From an uncultured beta proteobacterium (lineage in GTDB: Bacteria; Pseudomonadota; Gammaproteobacteria; Burkholderiales; Casimicrobiaceae): 64,000 bases of DNA. Below the pieces are notes generated by a model. The model worked only from the letters and a program-made list of their open reading frames with translations. It was not told the DNA's origin and made no database searches. Below, piece by piece: positions 29,522 through 41,066 of the stretch; position 1 is the stretch's first letter; each line of letters starts with the position of its first letter. The DNA lies in assembly GCA_963813415.1 (NCBI GenBank), contig CAWEYW010000008.1:98170-162169 (forward strand), given 5' to 3'. Made by a program: the position numbers and the translations under genes.

Positions 29522-29737
29522 ATGAACAGCAAGCAGATGCGTGAGCTCGTCGGCAGCATTGTCGCGATCACCATCACCGGCAGCGCGGGCGCGATCGCCG
29601 CCGGCGCTGCCGTGGCCGCGCTGGGCCTGACGGGCATCGTCGCGGCACTGGTCGCGGTGCCAATCGCGATGGCCGTCGCGGTCGCGCTGTTCGCGGCCGG
29701 GGTGCACCTCGGCAACATGGCGAGGAAGCGCTCTTGA
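29522..29737 (+). CDS. small Ala/Gly-rich membrane protein (71 aa)
   Basis: ATG 29522 within track ORF 29168..29737. Two hydrophobic segments. Its stop overlaps the next gene's start. Confidence 0.4.
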   Translation: MNSKQMRELVGSIVAITITGSAGAIAAGAAVAALGLTGIVAALVAVPIAMAVAVALFAAGVHLGNMARKRS

Positions 29738-30567
29738 TTCCGGCGGCGCAGCAGGAGGCGCTGGCCCGACGCCTCATCGACGCGTATGACCACGCCACGA
29801 CGCTGGCGCCGCTGACCATCGATACGCCCGAGCTCGATGTCGCCGCCGCGTATCGGGTGCTGGCAGCCATCGAGCGCACCCGCATGGCGCAGGGCTGGCG
29901 TCCGGTGGGACGCAAGATCGGGTTCACCAACACCACCATCTGGCCCCGCTACGGCGTCTACCAGCCCATGTGGGCGCACATCTGGGCCCACACGGTGCAC
30001 CACGCGCCGGACGGTGTCGCGACGCTCTCCCTCGAACGATTGGTGCAGCCACGCATCGAGCCGGAAATCGTGTTCGGACTGGCGGCGGTCCCGGTGCCAT
30101 ACGGTGAAGAGCCGGCGGACCTTCGCGCTGCGCTCGAAGCCATCGCCTGGATCGCCCCAGGCTTCGAGATCGTGCAAAGCCACTTCCCGGACTGGAAGTT
30201 CACTGCGGCCGACTGCACGGCCGCGTTCGGCCTGCATGGCGCGCTGGTCGTCGGGCCGCGCACGCCGCTCGACGCTGCCCGACGCGAGCGCCTGCTTCCG
30301 CGGTTGCCCGGTTTTCGCCTCACCTTATCCAAGCAAGGGCATGTTGCCGATGAGGGCGTCGGTGCCAACGTGCTCGGCGGCCCGCTACACGCGCTGCTGC
30401 ATCTGGCTCGCGTGATCGCCCGGCAGCCCGAGGCGCCGCCGCTCGCGCCGGGTGAGATCATCACCACCGGCACCATCACCGACGCGTGGCCCGTCGCCCC
30501 CGGCGAGACCTGGCAGAGCGACTACGGCGAGCTCGGTATTCCCGGCTTGCGGCTGACGTTCACCTGA
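29734..30567 (+). CDS. 2-keto-4-pentenoate hydratase-like (MhpD / fumarylacetoacetase-fold hydratase family)
   Basis: GRKIGFTNTTIW, RIEPEIVF, and C-terminal ITTGTITDAWPV. Confidence 0.8.
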   Translation: MIPAAQQEALARRLIDAYDHATTLAPLTIDTPELDVAAAYRVLAAIERTRMAQGWRPVGRKIGFTNTTIWPRYGVYQPMWAHIWAHTVHHAPDGVATLSLERLVQPRIEPEIVFGLAAVPVPYGEEPADLRAALEAIAWIAPGFEIVQSHFPDWKFTAADCTAAFGLHGALVVGPRTPLDAARRERLLPRLPGFRLTLSKQGHVADEGVGANVLGGPLHALLHLARVIARQPEAPPLAPGEIITTGTITDAWPVAPGETWQSDYGELGIPGLRLTFT

Positions 30568-31245
30568 CGCTGGCTCCAGCGCGGCCGTGACGACGTAACG
30601 CAGCGGTCCGCCCGGCGCGAGTGCGGCGAAGGGATAGCACGTGATGAGCGTCAGCCGCGACGGCGCGCGCGGCAGGGCGATGTCGCGGTAATCGACCACT
30701 GCCGCGCCCGTCACCCGATAGCGGCGGTGCACGCCGGCAGGTGTTTCGAGTTCGAGCACGTCGCCCACCGCGAGCGCGTGGAGGAAGCGGAAATGCGTAT
30801 CGCGATGTCCGGTGAGCACCACGTTGCCGGGCTCGCCGGGCGCCGCGGAGCCGTCGTGATGCCCCGGTCCGAAGGCGAGCGTGCGGCCGTTCGCGCCGGC
30901 AAGGACCAGGAGGTTCACGTCGTGGCCGGGGGCGACGAGTCGTGCGACCACATGCGTGTCGGCCCACGGCCATGGCCGCGGCATGGGCACGCCCGCACGA
31001 GCACGATCCCAGGCCACGCGCAGCAGGACCTGTGCCACGACTGCCTTGGTGCGCAGATAAGCGCCGTGGCCCAGGCTCATCGCGCCCGCAATCGCCATAA
31101 CGAGGGCCATCGCGGCGATCACGCGTGCGCGGCCGCGGACAGGGGAAGACTCGATCGTTGCGCGGCAGCCCTCCGGGGCCACGTTCATGCCGCGTCGCTG
31201 CAGGTGATCGACAGGTCCTCCCCTGTCCGCGGCAACCGCCATCAT
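30385..31245 (-). CDS. sortase, proteobacterial 'class GN' type
   Basis: N-terminal TM, VVLTGHRDTHF (His), TLITCYPF (Cys) and LRYVV (Arg). ATGA overlap with the target gene's stop. The last ~61 codons overlap the convergent hydratase gene. Confidence 0.85.
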   Translation of the reverse strand: MMAVAADRGGPVDHLQRRGMNVAPEGCRATIESSPVRGRARVIAAMALVMAIAGAMSLGHGAYLRTKAVVAQVLLRVAWDRARAGVPMPRPWPWADTHVVARLVAPGHDVNLLVLAGANGRTLAFGPGHHDGSAAPGEPGNVVLTGHRDTHFRFLHALAVGDVLELETPAGVHRRYRVTGAAVVDYRDIALPRAPSRLTLITCYPFAALAPGGPLRYVVTAALEPASGERQPQAGNTELAVVALPGLAGGDGPRVGDGAGGDDLTRRERRRLGLPGDHASQMQQRV

Positions 31246-33347
31246 GGCGAGCGCGCGAGGTAGCGCGAGCGCCCACGCAGCACGGCCGCCGCGACGAGCG
31301 CCAGCACGCCGAGAAGCATCTGCAGCGCCGCGGGCGTCGCGGTCTGCGGCAGCACGCCGAGGATCTCCTCACCCGCACCGTACGGCCGGTTGACGGGCAG
31401 CATGAGACTGGCGGCAGACTCGCCGGCAGGCAATGTCGGTGTCACGTCCACCGCAACGAGACTCGTATATGCGCTCGCGAGATGGTGGGCGAGCGCGACC
31501 TCGAGCACGCTCGCGCGAATGTCGGTCTCGTTCGCGCCGCCATGCAGGGCATCGGTCAGCGTCTCGATCTTCGCGCGCGCCCATACCGCGTCGAGACCAC
31601 TCGCCGTCCCCGCGGGCAGGACTGGCAGCGTGGCCGTCCAGGGAACACCGCCGCGGCGGGCGCGGATCTGCACGTCACCTTCCATGCCGGCGGCGAACGC
31701 GGCGCTCACCGTGATCGGCTCGCCGGCATAGAGATCCGGAATGCGCTGGGGGTAGGTCTCGGCAGCGCCGGGCCAGGTGATGGCGACGTCGGTCAGCACC
31801 GGTGCCTCGAGCTTGCGCAACAGCGCCGCCATCTTCGCCTGCACTTCGCTCACCTCGCCGATGTAGGTGAACGTGCCGCGGCCGTATTGCGCGGCCTTGG
31901 TCATGAACCACGCATTCGGGGCAGAGCCGATGCCCACGGTGAAAAGCCGCCGGTCGCCGAGTTTCGCCGTGATGAAGGCGAGCAGCTCGGCCTCGTTGCC
32001 CACCGCACCGTCGGTGAGAAACACGACCTGGCGCACCGGGCCTGGCGTCGATCCTGCCCCCGACGTCGCCGATAGTGCAGCTTCGAGGGCGGGACGCATT
32101 TCGGTGCCGCCTTGCGCGCGGAGCGCGCGCACGAAGGCATGGGCACGGCCGATGCTCGCAGCATCGACGGGCAAGGGCGCGGCGAAAAGCGTACGCGTCA
32201 CGGAATCGAATGCGATGACGTTGAAGGAATCGCCGGACTGCAGCCGGTCGAGCGCGAGATCCAGCGCGTCCTTCGCCTGCCGGATCGAGCTGCCTTCCAT
32301 CGAGCCGGAGGTGTCGATGATGAACACGACCTCGCGCGCCTGGCGCGCGGCCGGCGTTTCCGCGGGCGGCGGAATCACCATCAACAGGGCGTACTCTGTT
32401 GCCCCCTGACGCTGTGCAAACAGGGCCGCGCCCGGCGCAGCGCCGACGTCCGGCTTCCATACGAGCTCGAAGTCGCGGTCGGCGGGCACGGGACCGTCGA
32501 GGGTGACGGTATAGCGATGGCCGGGCGCCTCCTCGATGTGCACGTCGTGATAGGTGCTCTGGAGCGTGCCGAGAGCGAACCCGGGATCGAGCATGACGCG
32601 CAGCGTCGTGGGATTCACCGGCGTCGAGCGTGGTGCGACCGGCGGATCCGGCGGCGTGTCGTTGATCGCCGCCGAGGCATCCGCCGAACGATAGGAGGTG
32701 GCACTCGCGGGGCTGTAGCGCGGCGTCAGCGCCATCGGGAAGCGCAGGCGAAAGGCGCCATTGTCGAAATGCGCGCTCTCCTGGTACTCGAGCGACACCA
32801 CGATGTCCTCATCGGGCCCGATGTTGGCGACACTGGTCGTGAAGAGATTGGGCCGCTGCTGCTCCACCAGGGTCGCCTTGCGTCCCTCCTGTCGCGCCTG
32901 CGCATAGGCCTGCTGCGCGGCGCGACGTTCGCGAATCTGCCCTTCGATCCGGCGGTCCCCGACCTGCATGTCGAGGTGATCCACCGCCGCGCCTTCGGGC
33001 AGCGGGAACACATAGATGGCTTCGAGCCATTCCATGCCCGGGTTGTGGAAGCGTTGCGTGACGCGCGTGCGCGCGACCATGCCGGTCACGGTGATCTCGA
33101 CGTCGGTGGCCAGCAGTGGCGCCGGCAGGTCGCCCCCCGGGCTGCGGAAGAGCAGCGTGCCCTGTCTCGGGCCCGTGGGTGACGGCGTCGCGGCGCGCGC
33201 CTGGTTGGCCACCACGAATGCCGCGAGCCCGAGCACGAGACTCACGAATACCCCGACGGCCAGCGCCTCCGCCGCCAGGCGCAGCACGTCGCGCACAATG
33301 CCGCCGCCGCGCCCATCGACCGATCCGATCCGACTGCTTGCCTGCAT
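31242..33347 (-). CDS. proteobacterial sortase target protein: VIT-like + von Willebrand A domains with C-terminal LPQTA sorting signal
   Basis: Trimmed to ATG 33347. N-terminal signal anchor, VIT-like region (TRVTQRFHNP...AIYVFPLPEGAAVD), vWA MIDAS VVFIIDTSGSMEG, and C-terminal LPQTATPAALQMLLGVLALVAAAVLRGRSRY. Confidence 0.9.
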   Translation of the reverse strand: MQASSRIGSVDGRGGGIVRDVLRLAAEALAVGVFVSLVLGLAAFVVANQARAATPSPTGPRQGTLLFRSPGGDLPAPLLATDVEITVTGMVARTRVTQRFHNPGMEWLEAIYVFPLPEGAAVDHLDMQVGDRRIEGQIRERRAAQQAYAQARQEGRKATLVEQQRPNLFTTSVANIGPDEDIVVSLEYQESAHFDNGAFRLRFPMALTPRYSPASATSYRSADASAAINDTPPDPPVAPRSTPVNPTTLRVMLDPGFALGTLQSTYHDVHIEEAPGHRYTVTLDGPVPADRDFELVWKPDVGAAPGAALFAQRQGATEYALLMVIPPPAETPAARQAREVVFIIDTSGSMEGSSIRQAKDALDLALDRLQSGDSFNVIAFDSVTRTLFAAPLPVDAASIGRAHAFVRALRAQGGTEMRPALEAALSATSGAGSTPGPVRQVVFLTDGAVGNEAELLAFITAKLGDRRLFTVGIGSAPNAWFMTKAAQYGRGTFTYIGEVSEVQAKMAALLRKLEAPVLTDVAITWPGAAETYPQRIPDLYAGEPITVSAAFAAGMEGDVQIRARRGGVPWTATLPVLPAGTASGLDAVWARAKIETLTDALHGGANETDIRASVLEVALAHHLASAYTSLVAVDVTPTLPAGESAASLMLPVNRPYGAGEEILGVLPQTATPAALQMLLGVLALVAAAVLRGRSRYLARSP
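31245..31352 (-). other. sortase sorting signal (LPQTA + hydrophobic segment + basic tail)
   Basis: The last 36 codons of the target gene. The ctgccgcagaccgcg (LPQTA) codons lie at 31352..31338 on the minus strand. Confidence 0.8.
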
Positions 33348-33596
33348 GACTGCCCTTTCCCGGAGTGCAACAGGCGCCTGGCAGTCGCGATGCATCGCAT
33401 CGCCGGCCCCTGCGCCACGATGCGATTGCACGACGCCGCGCGGGCCGCGGTCGGGCAGGAAAAGGGCAGGGCGGGGAAGAAAAATGGCAAAGCGATGGCA
33501 GCAGTCCGTGGATGGGGCGATCGTCGTGACGCTGCGCTATAGTCGGCGCAGCTTGCGCATCGCTTCGGAAACAATCCCCACGAACGGTTTTGCCGG

Positions 33597-34295
33597 ATGA
33601 CCCGTCGCATCGCCATCATCGAGGACGAGCCCGCCATTCGCGCCAACTACGCGGACGCGCTGCGCCGTCACGGCTATGAAGTGGCGGCGTTCGGCAGCCG
33701 TGCGGAGGCGATGCGCGCCTTCGTGACGCGTCTTCCCGACCTCGCCCTGATCGACATCGGCCTGGGCGACGATGTCGACGGCGGCTTCGCGCTCTGCCGC
33801 GACCTGCGCGCCCTCTCCTCCACGCTGCCGATCCTGTTCCTGACCGCGCGCGACGGCGATTTCGACGTGGTCGCCGGCCTGCGCATGGGCGCGGACGATT
33901 ACCTCTCGAAGGACGTCAGCCTGCCGCATCTCACGGCGCGCATCGCCGCGCTGTTCCGGCGCAGCGATCTCCTCGGCGCCACGTCCGCCGTCGAGGAGAC
34001 GCTCACCCGCGGGCCGCTCCACCTCGACCTGAAGCGCATGACCGCGCGCTGGCAGGGAAACCCAGTGGAGCTCACGCTGACCGAGTTCTGGATGGTGCAC
34101 GCACTGGCGCGCTTTCCCGGGCACGTAAAGGATCGCGACGCCCTCATGCGCGACGCGCGCATCGTGGTCGACGACAGCACGATCACCTCGCACGTGAAGC
34201 GCATCCGGCGCAAGTTCGCTGCCGTCGATCCCGGATTCGACCGCATCGACACGGTGTACGGCATGGGCTATCGCTGGAAAGGCGATGACGCCTGA
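33597..34295 (+). CDS. OmpR-family response regulator (dedicated sortase system type)
   Basis: Receiver domain (RIAIIEDE, LALIDIGL) plus winged-helix output (TLTEFWMVHAL...VYGMGYRW). Divergent from the target-sortase operon. Confidence 0.9.
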   Translation: MTRRIAIIEDEPAIRANYADALRRHGYEVAAFGSRAEAMRAFVTRLPDLALIDIGLGDDVDGGFALCRDLRALSSTLPILFLTARDGDFDVVAGLRMGADDYLSKDVSLPHLTARIAALFRRSDLLGATSAVEETLTRGPLHLDLKRMTARWQGNPVELTLTEFWMVHALARFPGHVKDRDALMRDARIVVDDSTITSHVKRIRRKFAAVDPGFDRIDTVYGMGYRWKGDDA

Positions 34296-35961
34296 GCGCG
34301 CGCCGTCGGCGCGCAAAGGGCGGCGGCATTTCGCGCTCGGCATCCGCGCCCAGCTCCTGCTGGTGCTCACCGTGTTCCTGGTGCTGCCGTGGCTCGGGTA
34401 TGAATACGTGCAGGAGCTCGAGCGGTTCCTGCGCGACGCGCACGAGAAATCCCTCGCCAACACCGCCGAAGCCGTCGCCACCGCCCTGCACGACCGCGCG
34501 CGGCTGTTCGAGCAGCCAGGCCTCGCGCTGGCGCCGCTCGCGAGTGCGCGCAGTGCCGACGACGCCGGCGAGACCGAATTGCCGTCGCGCAATACGGTCC
34601 CGGGAGGCACCTCGGCCGAGATCGCCCAGATCCTGCACGGCCTCTCGCGCACCACTGCGCGCATCTGGGTCATCGATCGCAATCTCGACGTGCTCGCTCG
34701 CGCCGGATCGCTGCGCAAGCGGCCCGCATCACCGCCTCCGCCGCCCGCGGGATGGCAGCGCGTGAGCGGATGGATCGAGGCGCACACCGTCGCGCCGCTG
34801 TATCGGCTGGCGTTGAAGCAGCCGACCGACGATTTCGCGGAAGAGGCTGCAGGACGCACGCTGGCACAGGCGCGTGAAGTGGACGGCGCGCTTTCCGGCA
34901 TCCTGACGATCGATCGGCGGCCGACCCCCGACGGTCGCGCGACCATCGTCACGGCGGCCCATCCGATCTGGGTCGGCGATCAGGTGCGCGGCGCAGTGAT
35001 CGTCGAGGAAACCGGCAACGCGGTGCTCGCCGAGCGCAACCACGCCTTCGAGCGCCTGTTCAACATCGTGATTGCCGCGCTCCTGATCGGCTCCGCCGCG
35101 GTGACGTTCTACGCGACCCGGCTTTCGGGCCGCATACGCGCGCTGCGCGATGACGCCGAGCGCGCCATCGACCCGCAGGGCCGCGTGCACGCGCACCTCG
35201 CCGGCGCCGACGCGGGGGACGAGATCGGCGACCTGTCGCGCAGCTTTGCCAGCGTGCTCGAGCGGCTCGGCCAGTACGCCGCCTACCAGAAGAACATGGC
35301 GAGCCGGCTGTCGCACGAGCTGCGCACCCCGATTGCGGTGGTGCGCTCCTCCCTCGAGAACCTGCAGGTGCAGGTGCGCGACGAAGCCGCGCGCGTTTAC
35401 CTCGACCGCGCACAGGGCGGTCTCGCGCGCCTGACCGCGATCCTGACGCGCATGACGGAGGCGACCCGCCTCGAGCAGAGCCTGCACGAGGCGGAGCGCG
35501 AACGCATCGACCTCGTGGCGCTCGTCGGCGGCTGCGTGGAAGGTTATCGGGCGGCGTATCCCGGCCACGCCTTCCACGTCGAGCTGCCGGCGGCGCCATT
35601 GCCAGCGCTGATTGCGCCGGATCTCATCGCGCAGATGCTCGACAAGCTGATCGTCAATGCCACCGAATTCGCCACGCCGGGCTCACCGATCCATGTGCGC
35701 CTGGAGCGCGCCGGCGACCGCGCGCGGATCATCGTGGGCAATTCCGGACCGCTGCTGCCCGAAGGCATGGAAGACCGGTTGTTCGAGTCCATGGTTTCCG
35801 TGCGTCCCGACGCGGGCAGCGATGTTCCGCATCTCGGCCTCGGGCTGTACATCGTGCAGCTGATCGCCAAGTTCCACGGCGGGCGCGCCCGCGCCGAGAA
35901 TCGGGCCGACGGCTCCGGCGTGGTGATCACCGTCGCGCTGCCGCGCGAGCTTGACGATTAG
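34285..35961 (+). CDS. sensor histidine kinase (dedicated sortase system type)
   Basis: Overlaps the regulator gene by 11 nt. Two TM segments flank a ~210 aa periplasmic region. H-box SHELRTPIAVV, N/G boxes NATEFA and GLGLYIVQLIAKFHGG. Confidence 0.9.
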   Translation: MTPERAPSARKGRRHFALGIRAQLLLVLTVFLVLPWLGYEYVQELERFLRDAHEKSLANTAEAVATALHDRARLFEQPGLALAPLASARSADDAGETELPSRNTVPGGTSAEIAQILHGLSRTTARIWVIDRNLDVLARAGSLRKRPASPPPPPAGWQRVSGWIEAHTVAPLYRLALKQPTDDFAEEAAGRTLAQAREVDGALSGILTIDRRPTPDGRATIVTAAHPIWVGDQVRGAVIVEETGNAVLAERNHAFERLFNIVIAALLIGSAAVTFYATRLSGRIRALRDDAERAIDPQGRVHAHLAGADAGDEIGDLSRSFASVLERLGQYAAYQKNMASRLSHELRTPIAVVRSSLENLQVQVRDEAARVYLDRAQGGLARLTAILTRMTEATRLEQSLHEAERERIDLVALVGGCVEGYRAAYPGHAFHVELPAAPLPALIAPDLIAQMLDKLIVNATEFATPGSPIHVRLERAGDRARIIVGNSGPLLPEGMEDRLFESMVSVRPDAGSDVPHLGLGLYIVQLIAKFHGGRARAENRADGSGVVITVALPRELDD

Positions 35962-37716: not shown

Positions 37717-39138
37717 ATGCACCTGCACATCCTCGGCATCTGCGGCACCTTCATGGGCGGCATCGCCGCCATCGCCAAGACAGCGGGCCACACGGTGTCC
37801 GGCTGCGATGCGAACGTGTATCCGCCGATGAGCACGCAGCTGGCGGCGCTGGGGATCGGCCTGACCGAGGGCTGGGATCCGGGGCAATTGCAGGCCGTCG
37901 CGCGCGACGCGGACATGTTCGTCATCGGCAACGTGGTGTCGCGCGGCAATCCGCTGATGGAGGCAATCCTCGATGCGGGCCTGCCCTACGTTTCCGGACC
38001 GCAGTGGCTCTACGAGAACGTGCTGCGCGGCAGGTGGGTACTCGCCGTGGCGGGCACGCACGGCAAGACCACGACCGCCTCGATGCTCGCCCGGATCCTC
38101 GAGCATGCGGGCCTCGCCCCGGGCTTCCTCATCGGCGGGGTGCCGGTCGACTTCGGCTGCTCGGCGCGCGGTCCCGGCGAGACGCCCTTCTTCGTGATCG
38201 AGGCCGACGAGTACGACACCGCATTCTTCGACAAGCGCTCCAAGTTCGTTCACTACCGGCCGCGCACGGTGGTGCTCAACAATCTCGAATACGACCACGC
38301 CGACATCTTTCCCGATCTCGGGGCCATCGAGACGCAGTTCCACCATCTCGTCCGCACGGTGCCGCGACAGGGGCGATTGATCGTGAATGGCAGCCAGCCG
38401 AGTCTCGCGCGGGTGCTCGCCCGAGGAACGTGGACCGAGGTCGAATCGTTTCGAGCCGCCGCGGACGATGACCTCCTCCGTGCACAGGTCGGCAAACCGG
38501 GCGCAGCCTGGTCGATCGGCGACGACGGCACGATAAGGCTCGGCGATCGCGTGGAAGGCGTACTGCGCTTCGGCGAAGCCGGCCGGCACAATCAGCTCAA
38601 TGCGCTGGCGGCTATCGCTGCCGCGCGCCATGCCGGGGTTCCCGTGCGCGAGAGCCTGGCGGCGCTCGCCGCTTTCCGCGGCGTGAAACGACGCCTGGAA
38701 CTGCGTGGCGTCGTGAATCGCATCACGGTGTACGACGACTTTGCGCATCATCCGACTGCCATCGCCACCACGATCGATGGGCTGAGGCGCCGCGTGGGGA
38801 ACGGCCGCGTCATCGCGGTACTCGAGCCGCGCTCCAACACGATGAAGCTCGGCGCGGTGAAGGACGCCCTGCCGGGCAGTCTTGCTGCCGCGGAGGCGGT
38901 GTTCTGCTACGCACACAACCTGGGCTGGGACGTCGCCGCCGCGCTCTCGCCGCTCGGCGCGCGCGCGGCCGTGGTCGACGATCTCGACCACCTGGCCGAC
39001 CTGGTCGTGGCGAGCGCGCGCCCGGGCGATCACATCCTCGTGATGAGCAACGGCGGCTTCGGCGGCATTCACGACAAGCTGCTGCAACGCCTGCGCAATC
39101 AGGCCCCAGGCCAGCCACAGGCATCGCACGCGCCATGA
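37717..39138 (+). CDS. mpl: UDP-N-acetylmuramate:L-alanyl-gamma-D-glutamyl-meso-diaminopimelate ligase
   Basis: Track ORF 36808..39138 trimmed to ATG 37717. MHLHILGICGTFMGGIA, GTHGKTTT, and Mur-ligase architecture. Confidence 0.9.
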   Translation: MHLHILGICGTFMGGIAAIAKTAGHTVSGCDANVYPPMSTQLAALGIGLTEGWDPGQLQAVARDADMFVIGNVVSRGNPLMEAILDAGLPYVSGPQWLYENVLRGRWVLAVAGTHGKTTTASMLARILEHAGLAPGFLIGGVPVDFGCSARGPGETPFFVIEADEYDTAFFDKRSKFVHYRPRTVVLNNLEYDHADIFPDLGAIETQFHHLVRTVPRQGRLIVNGSQPSLARVLARGTWTEVESFRAAADDDLLRAQVGKPGAAWSIGDDGTIRLGDRVEGVLRFGEAGRHNQLNALAAIAAARHAGVPVRESLAALAAFRGVKRRLELRGVVNRITVYDDFAHHPTAIATTIDGLRRRVGNGRVIAVLEPRSNTMKLGAVKDALPGSLAAAEAVFCYAHNLGWDVAAALSPLGARAAVVDDLDHLADLVVASARPGDHILVMSNGGFGGIHDKLLQRLRNQAPGQPQASHAP

Positions 39139-39719: not shown

Positions 39720-39821
39720 CCCAGGTCAAATTGCTGCGTTCGGATGCAGGATGCAGCGGCGTTCCACGTCGTGCTCGATTACAATGCGCGACCCCCGCTT
39801 TGCACCTGCTGCAAACTGCCG

Positions 39822-41066
39822 ATGTTCCGAGCCTCCCGCCATGCCGCGCTGCTGGCGCGCACGCTTTTTCTGCTCACCCTGACTCTCCTGCCCGGCCTGG
39901 CGCTCGCGCAGCGCATCTGTGTGGATCGCGACGTGATCGTCTTCGGCGACCGTCCGGTGGGCTCGTCGACGATCGTCACCGTAACGGTCAGCAATTGCGG
40001 AACCGCGCCCTTCAGCTTCACCGACGTCAGCGTGCATCCATCCACCGGCCCGGCGTTCAGGGTCAGATCCGGATGCGTCACCGGCGCCGCGCTGCAGCCT
40101 GGCGAAGCATGCACGGCCGATGTGGAATTCGCGCCGACGATCGCCGGCCAGGAGTCCGGCGGATTGTGGCTGCGCAATACCACGATCACGCCGTCACAGC
40201 TGATCACGTTCTATGGCCGCGGCATGACGTCGGCCGCGGGAACGTCCACGCTCGCTTTCGCCCCGTCTCCACTGCAATTCGGGGATACGCCGCCGGGGTC
40301 GACGAGCGCGTCCATCCGGCTCGACCTGCAGAATCGCGGATCTGTCGCGATCACTCCGTCCGCGCTGGTGGTCAACGGCCCGGATGCGTACGACTTCAAC
40401 GGGACGGGCGATTGCGCCGTGGGTCACGCGATCCCCGCCGGCGGCTCGTGCCATCTCGACATGGTGTTCACACCGCAGGCGCTGGGCACCCGGGTCGCCA
40501 ATCTGATCGTCGATGCGCCGCAGCTCGCGAGCCTCGCCATCCTCCAAATCACCGGGACCGGCGCGGTGGCGGTCGACGCGAATCCGGCCGTGGACATCGT
40601 GGAATTCCGCCACACGGAACTCGACCATTACTTCCTCACGGCTGAACCTGCAGAGGTGGATTTCATCGACCGCGGGGGATTGGGTCCGGCCTGGGTGCGC
40701 ACCGGCCGGCACCTGAGAGGCTGGCCTGCCGGCGCCGCGGCCCCGCAGGCAGAGGCGGTCGCGGCTTGCCGTTTCTTCGGCACGCCCGGCCTGGGTCCCG
40801 ACTCGCACTTCTACACGGTGGACGCCGGGGAATGCGCGGCCGTGAAGCAGGACCCGTACTGGACGTTCGAGGGTCTCGCCTTTCGCGTGCTGCCGCTCGT
40901 CGGCGGCGGCTGCGGCAGTGGCGCCGACGTCGTGCAGCGGCTATTCAAGCCGGCCGCGGACGTGACCGGCATTCGCCACCGGTACGTCATCAGCGGCGAC
41001 GATGTGGCGGCGATGCTGGCCGCGGGCTGGGTGCTGGAAGGGCCGGTGTTCTGCTCCGTCAGGTAA
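39822..41066 (+). CDS. secreted protein with two choice-of-anchor-D/ASH-like beta-sandwich repeats and a Cys-containing C-terminal domain
   Basis: Trimmed to ATG 39822 (signal peptide ...LLPGLALAQ). Repeats: FGDRPVGSSTIVTVTVSNCGTAPFSF...GEACTADVEFAP and FGDTPPGSTSASIRLDLQNRGSVAI...GGSCHLDMVFTP. C-terminal HYFLT and HFYT motifs. Confidence 0.7.
   Translation: MFRASRHAALLARTLFLLTLTLLPGLALAQRICVDRDVIVFGDRPVGSSTIVTVTVSNCGTAPFSFTDVSVHPSTGPAFRVRSGCVTGAALQPGEACTADVEFAPTIAGQESGGLWLRNTTITPSQLITFYGRGMTSAAGTSTLAFAPSPLQFGDTPPGSTSASIRLDLQNRGSVAITPSALVVNGPDAYDFNGTGDCAVGHAIPAGGSCHLDMVFTPQALGTRVANLIVDAPQLASLAILQITGTGAVAVDANPAVDIVEFRHTELDHYFLTAEPAEVDFIDRGGLGPAWVRTGRHLRGWPAGAAAPQAEAVAACRFFGTPGLGPDSHFYTVDAGECAAVKQDPYWTFEGLAFRVLPLVGGGCGSGADVVQRLFKPAADVTGIRHRYVISGDDVAAMLAAGWVLEGPVFCSVR

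Follow-up and report, generated by a model that had tools for sequence, protein, structure and literature searches.

Sortases are textbook Gram-positive enzymes; what, then, does one do in the envelope of a diderm betaproteobacterium, and to what would it attach its substrate? The question is raised by a stretch of 64,000 nucleotides (nt) from an uncultured member of the Casimicrobiaceae (assembly GCA_963813415.1, contig CAWEYW010000008.1, positions 98,170 to 162,169), hereafter the window, which encodes a sortase, an adjacent VIT-vWA protein carrying a sortase-type sorting signal, and a divergently transcribed response regulator and sensor histidine kinase. Judged by family membership, the locus is a 'proteobacterial dedicated sortase system', real and already catalogued, and this copy is a trimmed betaproteobacterial variant with a PDC-only kinase and no PdsO. 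The best explanation overall, which we hold with moderate confidence, is that the minimal four-gene system carries out a cell-wall-stress-induced transpeptidation of the vWA protein to peptidoglycan. The open reading frame (ORF) listing of the window contained the four genes at the coordinates given in the initial annotation, which had been made from the sequence alone:

30385..31245, minus strand: class GN sortase, ORF of 286 residues
31242..33347, minus strand: sortase target, ORF of 701 residues
33597..34295, plus strand: OmpR/PhoB-type response regulator of the PghR/PdsR type, ORF of 232 residues
34285..35961, plus strand: sensor histidine kinase of the PghK/PdsS type, short form, ORF of 558 residues

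The remaining details of the layout were likewise borne out by the letters: the ATGA junction (ccATGAtgg, in which the TGA stop of the target overlaps the ATG of the sortase), the C-terminal LPQTA motif with its helix and tail, the 11-nt overlap of the regulator and kinase reading frames, and the divergent gap, which measured 249 nt from target ATG to regulator ATG. No ORF was found inside this 249-base pair (bp) gap. Proteins identical in sequence to all four ORFs had already been deposited publicly under NCBI and ENA, each on a single 215-kb contig. An alternative GTG start at 33431, giving a target of 729 residues, was rejected; it overlaps a predicted −10 element and the deposited protein has 701 residues, both of which support the ATG at 33347 proposed earlier.

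Identity was assessed with the four NCBIfam hidden Markov models (HMMs) named for this system, the check that the initial annotation had suggested. Three proteins exceeded the curated cut-offs: the sortase (TIGR03784, class GN sortase; 195.8 bits, cut-off 158.25, E 4e-58), the target (TIGR03788; 750.1 bits, cut-off 551.65, E 2e-225) and the regulator (TIGR03787; 380.2 bits, cut-off 335.7, E 3e-114). The kinase did not, scoring 547.6 bits against TIGR03785 (cut-off 612.2, E 4e-164), although the kinase family of this system was its best match by far. A refuting condition named in the initial annotation, family HMMs that do not match, is thereby partly triggered. Since the shortfall reflects a missing sensor module of ~180 residues, its cause is structural and not misidentification. 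The Pfam domains were those expected from the assignment: Sortase; VIT and vWA; Response_reg and Trans_reg_C; HisKA and HATPase_c. The association had been described as one of four genes. All four were present, but the Shewanella annotation includes a fifth member, the OmpA-like PdsO (TIGR03789). With an HMM built from three PdsO sequences of gamma-type loci (one of which was scanned against NCBIfam, with TIGR03789 as best match), no PdsO was detected among the six-frame ORFs of the window or in the close clade.

The sortase has an intact catalytic core and an unusual C-terminus, the two features being placed as follows:

30577..30933, minus strand: sortase domain, residues 105-223, with triad H147, C203 and R216
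30385..30573, minus strand: read-through tail of the sortase, 62 residues and stop, antisense to the 3' end of a hydratase-family gene

The domain matched Pfam Sortase PF04203 with 88.6 bits. In an alignment of 19 sortase homologues, the motifs GHRDTHF, TLITCYPF and LRYVV, which hold H147, C203 and R216, fell on invariant columns, so the His/Cys/Arg contexts recognised earlier are those of an intact triad; the motifs PWPWADT and GHRDTHF were invariant and specific to these sortases. The N-terminal 35 residues are encoded by a region that also forms an RNA hairpin (described below), and a long helix at residues ~36-83 includes the membrane anchor. The best Protein Data Bank (PDB) sequence match of the sortase profile was Bacillus anthracis SrtD (2LN7, E 1.3e-17). 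An AlphaFold model was of moderate quality (predicted local distance difference test, pLDDT, 67.5), with the first 35 and last ~58 residues disordered; the top 50 Foldseek matches of this model in the PDB were all sortases. After TIGR03784, the next NCBIfam matches were the class D 'LPxTATN-specific' models, with scores far under the cut-offs (NF033746, 79.6 vs 165 bits; NF058671, 80.8 vs 140 bits). On these scores the enzyme resembles class D sortases and is not a member of that class. It shares with class D sortases (B. anthracis SrtD, 2LN7; Clostridium perfringens SrtD, 4D70) the fold, the His/Cys/Arg triad and an LPxTA(T)-type motif, but would act in a diderm periplasm on a single, adjacent, dedicated substrate.

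The tail originated from a small deletion. Relative to the closest relative, locus L081 (loci recovered in our scans carry L numbers), 9 nt (TGAGTCTGC, at about 6340..6360 of L081) are missing from the window, so that the stop codon is lost and the ORF extends 62 codons further; the L081 sortase ends ...VTAAME-TGA. The extended tail overlaps the convergent hydratase-family gene by 183 nt, is common to no homologue and was modelled as disordered. The catalytic domain is unaffected.

The target combines a membrane-anchored N-terminus, two ectodomains and a sorting signal:

33207..33266, minus strand: signal anchor, residues 28-47, at the target N-terminus
32784..33110, minus strand: VIT domain (PF08487, 123 bits)
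31869..32333, minus strand: vWA domain (VWA_3, PF13768, 78 bits)
32301..32315, minus strand: DTSGS of the metal ion-dependent adhesion site (MIDAS), residue 345
31242..31352, minus strand: sorting signal, with LPQTA at 31338..31352, hydrophobic helix TPAALQMLLGVLALVAAAVL, basic tail RGRSRYLARSP and stop

Both domains named in the initial annotation, a VIT-like region and a vWA domain with MIDAS, were thus recognised by Pfam, and the MIDAS was complete, with DTSGS at residue 345, GGT (GGT-E) at 413 and TDG at 450. The DxSxS pattern was kept in all 65 of 65 target homologues. The best PDB relatives were PARP4, ITIH4 and ITIH1. Heavy chains of the inter-alpha-trypsin inhibitor (ITI) and the vault protein PARP4 have the same order of a VIT domain followed by a vWA domain with complete MIDAS. 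The C-terminus of ITI heavy chains is cleaved, after which the chains become covalently bound to chondroitin sulfate or hyaluronan; the linkage chemistry and the enzymes are unrelated, however, and the bacterial target uses a sortase signal. No other sortase-type C-terminal tail occurred in any six-frame ORF of the whole 64-kb window. Homologous tails read LPQTAT, LPRTAT, LPKTAT, GAQTATP, LPQGA or FPATAT, and the L081 target has LPQTG where the window has LPQTA.

Variation of this signal was also seen more widely, in the targets of L002, L003, L006, L008-L010, L030, L004 and L081. In part of the nearest clade the 'LP' was replaced (GAQTATP, GTQTATP, APQTATP or GPQTATP), and other lineages carried LPRGG, LPQGA or FPATAT; the constant part was x-T/G-A-T, not LP. 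In five loci (L001, L005, L011, L013 and L017) the target ORF continues without a stop after LPRTAT, helix and basic tail into a second hydrophobic segment and a domain of ~200 residues ending ...HGTGC. This extension is either an in-frame fused gene or a separate membrane protein left after sortase cleavage.

The kinase was predicted to cross the membrane twice, with ~220 residues forming a periplasmic domain; HAMP matched weakly, HisKA (H344) and HATPase_c were present, and the H-box, N and G boxes were invariant. The main stretch of TIGR03785 covered profile positions 258-703 only. Against long forms of ~700 residues the protein aligned end to end except for one contiguous gap of ~180 residues at residues ~95-100 (nt ~34567..34590), after the first periplasmic helix; the long-form kinase from L060 passed TIGR03785 with 622.4 bits. 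The top 120 homologues of the window kinase were all 539-570 residues long, and their NCBI name is only 'ATP-binding protein'. In a model of the periplasmic domain (pLDDT 64), a long helix leads into an alpha/beta fold that is PDC/Cache-like, and a disordered loop stands where long forms carry the extra module. The best PDB matches of the model were the WalK extracellular domain (4YWZ, 7DUD and 5IS1; E 1e-4 to 1e-3, template modelling score 0.62-0.69 on the matched structure), then DctB and CitA. The PDC/Cache domain of WalK (YycG) is thus the best structural match, and both kinases are linked to cell-wall metabolism, but at 13-14% identity and with a sensor model of pLDDT 64 no homology is claimed.

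The signal of this kinase had been regarded as unknown, a view that is outdated. The orthologous kinase and regulator of Shewanella oneidensis, SO2192/SO2193, were renamed PghK/PghR and respond to peptidoglycan damage: both loss of PBP1a and several antibiotics that target peptidoglycan activate the pair (bioRxiv 10.1101/2023.05.05.539549). PghKR induces blaA and relV; ampicillin treatment of the wild type and loss of PBP1a each raised the sortase operon more than 17-fold (bioRxiv 10.1101/2023.05.05.539549). Signalling by PghK needs residues in a periplasmic CBM9-like module, R177 and Y178 being two of the three required, and most betaproteobacterial PghK homologues are without CBM9 (bioRxiv 10.1101/2023.05.05.539549). 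Pfam gave no CBM9 match even in the long-form kinase, so the name of the module rests on the preprint. In Shewanella algae, the recurrent substitution pdsS G547W was accompanied by 126- to 799-fold higher expression of sortase, target and pdsO (PMC11580497). In a paper of 2026, the PghKR work is still listed as submitted (PMC13488354).

The window resembles the Shewanella system in several respects. Its sortase, target and regulator fall into the NCBIfam families of the Shewanella proteins; both loci have divergent operons that share a short control region of similar length (232 bp in S. oneidensis vs 249 bp in the window), and the target gene lies directly upstream of the sortase gene, in an operon that in Shewanella is controlled by the sensor pair. 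It differs in having no PdsO, in the hairpin between target and sortase, and in a kinase that is ~160 residues shorter, has no CBM9-like module and falls below the family cut-off. Neither blaA (beta-lactamase) nor relV was seen among the annotated neighbouring genes of the window.

Between the divergent operons lies a candidate site of shared control:

33453..33501, minus strand: putative response-regulator operator, a direct-repeat array with an 11-bp period, cTGCCAtcgctTTGCCAtttttCTTCCCcgcccTGCCCttttccTGCCC
33425..33430, minus strand: predicted −10 element TGCAAT of the target-sortase operon
33538..33543, plus strand: TATAGT, the predicted −10 element for regulator and kinase, 54 nt ahead of the ATG of the regulator

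The repeat in the window reads GCCA-N7-GCCA, and the exact repeat occurs once in the window. The pattern G[CT]CA-N7-G[CT]CA was present in 20 of 22 regulator-target intergenic regions, always on the strand of the target operon; the background rate was 0.107 per kb per strand. Counting all loci, 22 of 35 carried it, and gamma-type loci had close variants. When related loci were compared by eye, a [TG][CT]AAT-type hexamer stood at a similar distance from the operator, and the block GACTATAGCGCA (read on the other strand), which contains TATAGT, was conserved just upstream of the regulator in almost all of them. A sigma-70 scan of 30.3-36.1 kb returned no full promoter, as expected for an activator-dependent promoter. 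We infer that the repeat array is the putative binding site of the regulator. Its spacing suits an OmpR/PhoB-type activator overlapping both −35 positions, and its position fits the co-induction of both operons in S. algae (PMC11580497).

In some relatives the two genes lie further apart: L006, L008, L010, L077, L030 and L074 had 1-5 kb of other genes between regulator and target, and in L030 and L074 the operator remained beside the target.

In the mechanism that we favour, envelope or cell-wall stress would activate the kinase, as in the Shewanella orthologue, and the phosphorylated regulator would bind the repeats and turn on both operons. The operon control by the sensor pair and the cell-wall damage signal are taken from the orthologue experiments. 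Sec would export the target, which would stay in the inner membrane through its C-terminal helix. The periplasmic sortase domain would then cut the Thr-Ala bond, form a thioacyl intermediate on Cys203 and transfer the VIT-vWA protein to an amine, the likeliest acceptor being meso-diaminopimelate of a stem peptide or of lipid II. Diaminopimelate of peptidoglycan is our best guess, because the closest solved relatives are LPxTA-specific class D sortases; the analogy extends to the next NCBIfam matches, which are of class D, and to the motif of the family, LPxTAT. Class D sortases anchor LPxTA substrates to a diaminopimelate-type wall. Peptidoglycan would thus carry a tethered, metal-dependent binding module while the cell wall is under stress, and the window copy would work without PdsO and with a kinase having a PDC/Cache-like sensor only.

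Several observations weigh against this mechanism. An acceptor is not known for any sortase of class GN. The window kinase is without the module that holds R177 and Y178 in Shewanella, so that its signal may differ from that of the Shewanella kinase, and the binding of the regulator to the repeats is only inferred. On the side of the enzyme, the stop codon is lost, the AlphaFold model is of low confidence at the catalytic His loop (residues 122-150 being too weak for active-site geometry), and GAQTATP replaces LPxTA in some close relatives, which implies recognition rules different from those of textbook sortases. Deletion of SO2194-SO2196, the three sortase-system genes, leaves ampicillin resistance unchanged in S. 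oneidensis (bioRxiv 10.1101/2023.05.05.539549), so a protective role of the sortase genes is unproven. Related genomes without target body and sortase, described below, keep the sensor pair, and the sortase module is hence dispensable in that lineage.

The alternative that survives best, possible though on balance doubtful, concerns the fate of the cleaved protein: the sortase would only release the target by hydrolysis, or join it to an acceptor other than peptidoglycan, such as an outer-membrane lipoprotein, a lipid amine (e.g. phosphatidylethanolamine) or, in other lineages, PdsO. The initial annotation had stated that neither acceptor nor physiological role is established, and the 2023 preprint says likewise (bioRxiv 10.1101/2023.05.05.539549). 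Homologous VIT-vWA ectodomains are also found in adjacent one-enzyme, one-target pairs with another sorting signal and another enzyme class, GlyGly-CTERM with rhombosortase or PEP-CTERM with exosortase, which suggests that processing and placement matter, rather than peptidoglycan as such (PMC3237569). The low class D HMM scores point the same way, as does the co-occurrence of PdsO with the sortase system in gamma-type and Nitrospira loci. On the other side, sortases in general transfer their substrates to an amine of the cell wall, class D, which uses LPxTA substrates, supplies the closest solved relative, and PdsO is absent here and throughout the clade. A four-gene core without PdsO argues that PdsO is not an obligatory acceptor and narrows what is essential.

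A second layer of control may reside in the junction of target and sortase, where a long inverted repeat was found inside the annotated 5' end of the sortase gene, just after the start codon:

31127..31238, minus strand: conserved RNA hairpin of 112 nt with a 19-bp outer stem, GCCGCGGACAGGGGAGGAC ... GTCTTCCCCTGTCCGCGGC

The motifs 'ADRGG' and 'ESSPV' in the sortase N-termini of the clade are the two arms of this repeat in the DNA. The minimum free energy of the 151-nt stretch 31110..31260 was −86.2 kcal/mol (z = −3.7). Across 23 loci, 90.7% of cells were paired compared with 37-47% in slid controls, and 18 hairpin pairs were changed on both sides compared with 8-12; 0 of 500 shuffles reached the observed values. 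A covariance model (R1) scored 64 bits on the sense strand of the window and 36 bits on the antisense strand. One G-U pair was invariant, and many C-to-U changes keep pairing on the sense strand only. The sense-strand-only pairing and the higher sense score indicate that the structure is a sense-strand RNA. The hairpin was also present at the target/sortase junctions of L001-L030, L051 and L081, with a length of 110-130 nt. In 24 genome loci and the window (1.35 Mb), there was one sense-strand copy per locus, always at this junction and none elsewhere. Against Rfam, only chance-level matches (E above 2) were obtained for the window (29.5-36.5 kb) and for the canonical copy in L011.

Other readings of the repeat were considered. 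A dispersed repetitive extragenic palindromic (REP) element or miniature inverted-repeat transposable element was rejected, given one copy per locus and metagenome copies that, where context was visible, all stood at the same locus type; a search of the window with the arms returned only the two hairpin arms. A DNA cruciform or protein-binding palindrome is unlikely in view of the invariant G-U, the sense-only pairing and a sense score well above the antisense score. A purely peptide-level explanation of 'ADRGG...ESSPV' was dismissed, as non-conservative changes from R to W to G were matched by compensating codons on the other arm. The hairpin is probably translated as well as folded, because the frame is open across it in ~19 loci despite differing spacer lengths; in L081, the closest relative, the hairpin and the body of the sortase are not in the same frame. 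REP elements in malE-malF are intercistronic stabiliser hairpins and Rickettsia palindromic elements are in-frame insertions. Both resemble the window hairpin as long palindromes between or inside operon genes with the frame open, but the window hairpin is not dispersed, being a single copy at a fixed locus type. Within the mechanism proposed above, the window hairpin probably keeps sortase synthesis low or couples it to translation of the target; alternatively, it could be a site for RNase III or other processing.

Related loci were recovered in two scans. The first covered one genome per GTDB species and yielded 80 loci. The relatives of this copy are Casimicrobiaceae and other Burkholderiales, the close relatives being betaproteobacterial and Casimicrobiaceae metagenome-assembled genomes (MAGs) with sortases 48-59% identical to that of the window. 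The family also occurred in MAGs labelled Nitrospira, Acidobacteria, Myxococcota, Rokuibacteriota and Methylomirabilota, and public data hold more than 7,600 sortase clusters and ~5,000 kinase clusters. The layout, kinase and regulator on one side and target and sortase on the other, was kept in the close clade and recurred in dozens of genomes; within the clade, more than 20 species-level genomes had the module in identical synteny. Synteny was also equal in the closest relative, L081, whose kinase is 87% identical. The flanks were conserved: on the sortase side they encode a hydratase-family protein, ArsC and a solute-binding protein of family 5, and on the kinase side, in this order, a small protein of the DMT family, an MFS transporter, Mpl and YqiA. 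By this conservation the locus is stable and chromosomal, not a mobile island. The sortase diverges much faster than the kinase: its nearest non-identical homologues were at most 66% identical over the aligned part, compared with 87% and 79% for the kinase in the same genome set.

The second scan, of metagenomes with the hairpin arm sequences, gave 80 loci (120 stretches matched), in 47 of which the model recognised the element. The hairpin lay between target and sortase, as in the window, in ~29 of these 47; in the other ~18, it was present and the target body and sortase were absent (L086, L091, L092, L101, L136, L138, L150 and L161, and probably L098, L123, L131, L140 and L152, are such loci). 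Where the contig reaches, these loci keep kinase and regulator. The operator was found 236-271 nt upstream of the hairpin in six of eight and 420 nt upstream in a seventh. They also contain a mini-ORF of 45-55 residues (...RVWRDLTLLAAQSFAIGIAASVLLGLAVFIVA*) that ends just before the hairpin and resembles the N-terminal signal anchor of the window target (...IVRDVLRLAAEALAVGVFVSLVLGLAAFVVA). From the sequences, it appears that the sortase module was either lost or never gained while the sensor pair was kept. The mini-ORF may encode a functional small membrane protein, or these loci may reflect plain module loss. Such retention of the sensor pair fits a sortase-independent role like that of PghKR in Shewanella.

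These loci invite a broader and rather improbable proposal. The hairpin, as an RNA of 110-130 nt, and the anchor mini-protein would be two stand-alone elements, and the sortase system would be an addition to an older stress circuit made up of the sensor pair, a small peptide and RNA, with the class GN sortase tethering a vWA protein to peptidoglycan in a diderm cell-wall damage response. If so, the RNA, through coupled translation or cutting by RNase III, would determine how much target is made relative to sortase, and the mini-protein (cytoplasmic RVWRDL..LAA and a transmembrane helix) would be a small membrane feedback partner of the kinase, on which it could act as MgrB does on PhoQ.

The same loci bear on a second rival of the tethering mechanism, namely that the sortase-target module is a decaying passenger, partly impaired in the window, while selection acts on a two-component pair with its own regulon. 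We regard this as quite unlikely. It would account for the sortase stop codon lost via the 9-nt deletion, for a hairpin out of frame with the sortase body in the closest relative, for the ~18 metagenome loci that keep kinase, regulator, operator, mini-ORF and hairpin without target body or sortase, and for the faster divergence of the sortase (at most 66% vs 87% identity for the kinase). The role of the Shewanella sensor pair in beta-lactam resistance is, moreover, independent of the sortase genes (bioRxiv 10.1101/2023.05.05.539549). Both ORFs are, however, full length and free of internal stops, their catalytic and MIDAS residues are intact, sortase and target score well above the curated cut-offs, and the module is retained with the same synteny in the >20 species-level genomes of the clade.

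In Gram-positive pili, the tip pilins have vWA domains that include MIDAS sites. Polymerisation of the vWA protein into a pilus-like fibre, as by class C sortases with such pilins, is nonetheless highly improbable: class C sortases were among the best structural and sequence matches, but the NCBIfam class C model scored 32 bits only, there is a single substrate gene with no pilin motif or shaft-subunit genes seen, and a fibre would have no obvious route across the outer membrane.

The cassette itself was already catalogued and partly studied, and its classification is unchanged by our analysis. The operator, the intra-operon hairpin, the loss of the stop codon and the loci without target body and sortase are not described in the papers on the system cited here. 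The locus shows that the core of the system is four genes only, which would work without PdsO and without the CBM9-like module of the kinase; such a minimal version eases testing of what a sortase attaches to in a diderm cell. With the conserved operator, reporter and binding assays have a direct starting point. The locus-specific hairpin brings in a further level of control, in a region that gene callers now read as protein, and the loci that keep the sensor pair without target body and sortase support the Shewanella finding that this pair has work of its own.

Of the neighbouring genes, the hydratase-family gene on the sortase side (29734..30567, plus strand) is convergent with the sortase. 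On the kinase side, identification of the MFS gene beside the kinase as an AmpG-type muropeptide permease was unsupported by NCBIfam. A secreted protein of 440 residues with two 'choice-of-anchor D' domains (NF012200, 90 bits) is encoded at 39744..41066 (plus strand); no relation to the sortase system was seen. The peptidoglycan-recycling ligase Mpl (TIGR01081, 654 bits) is encoded at 37717..39138 (plus strand), three genes downstream of the kinase, and this proximity may be plain synteny.

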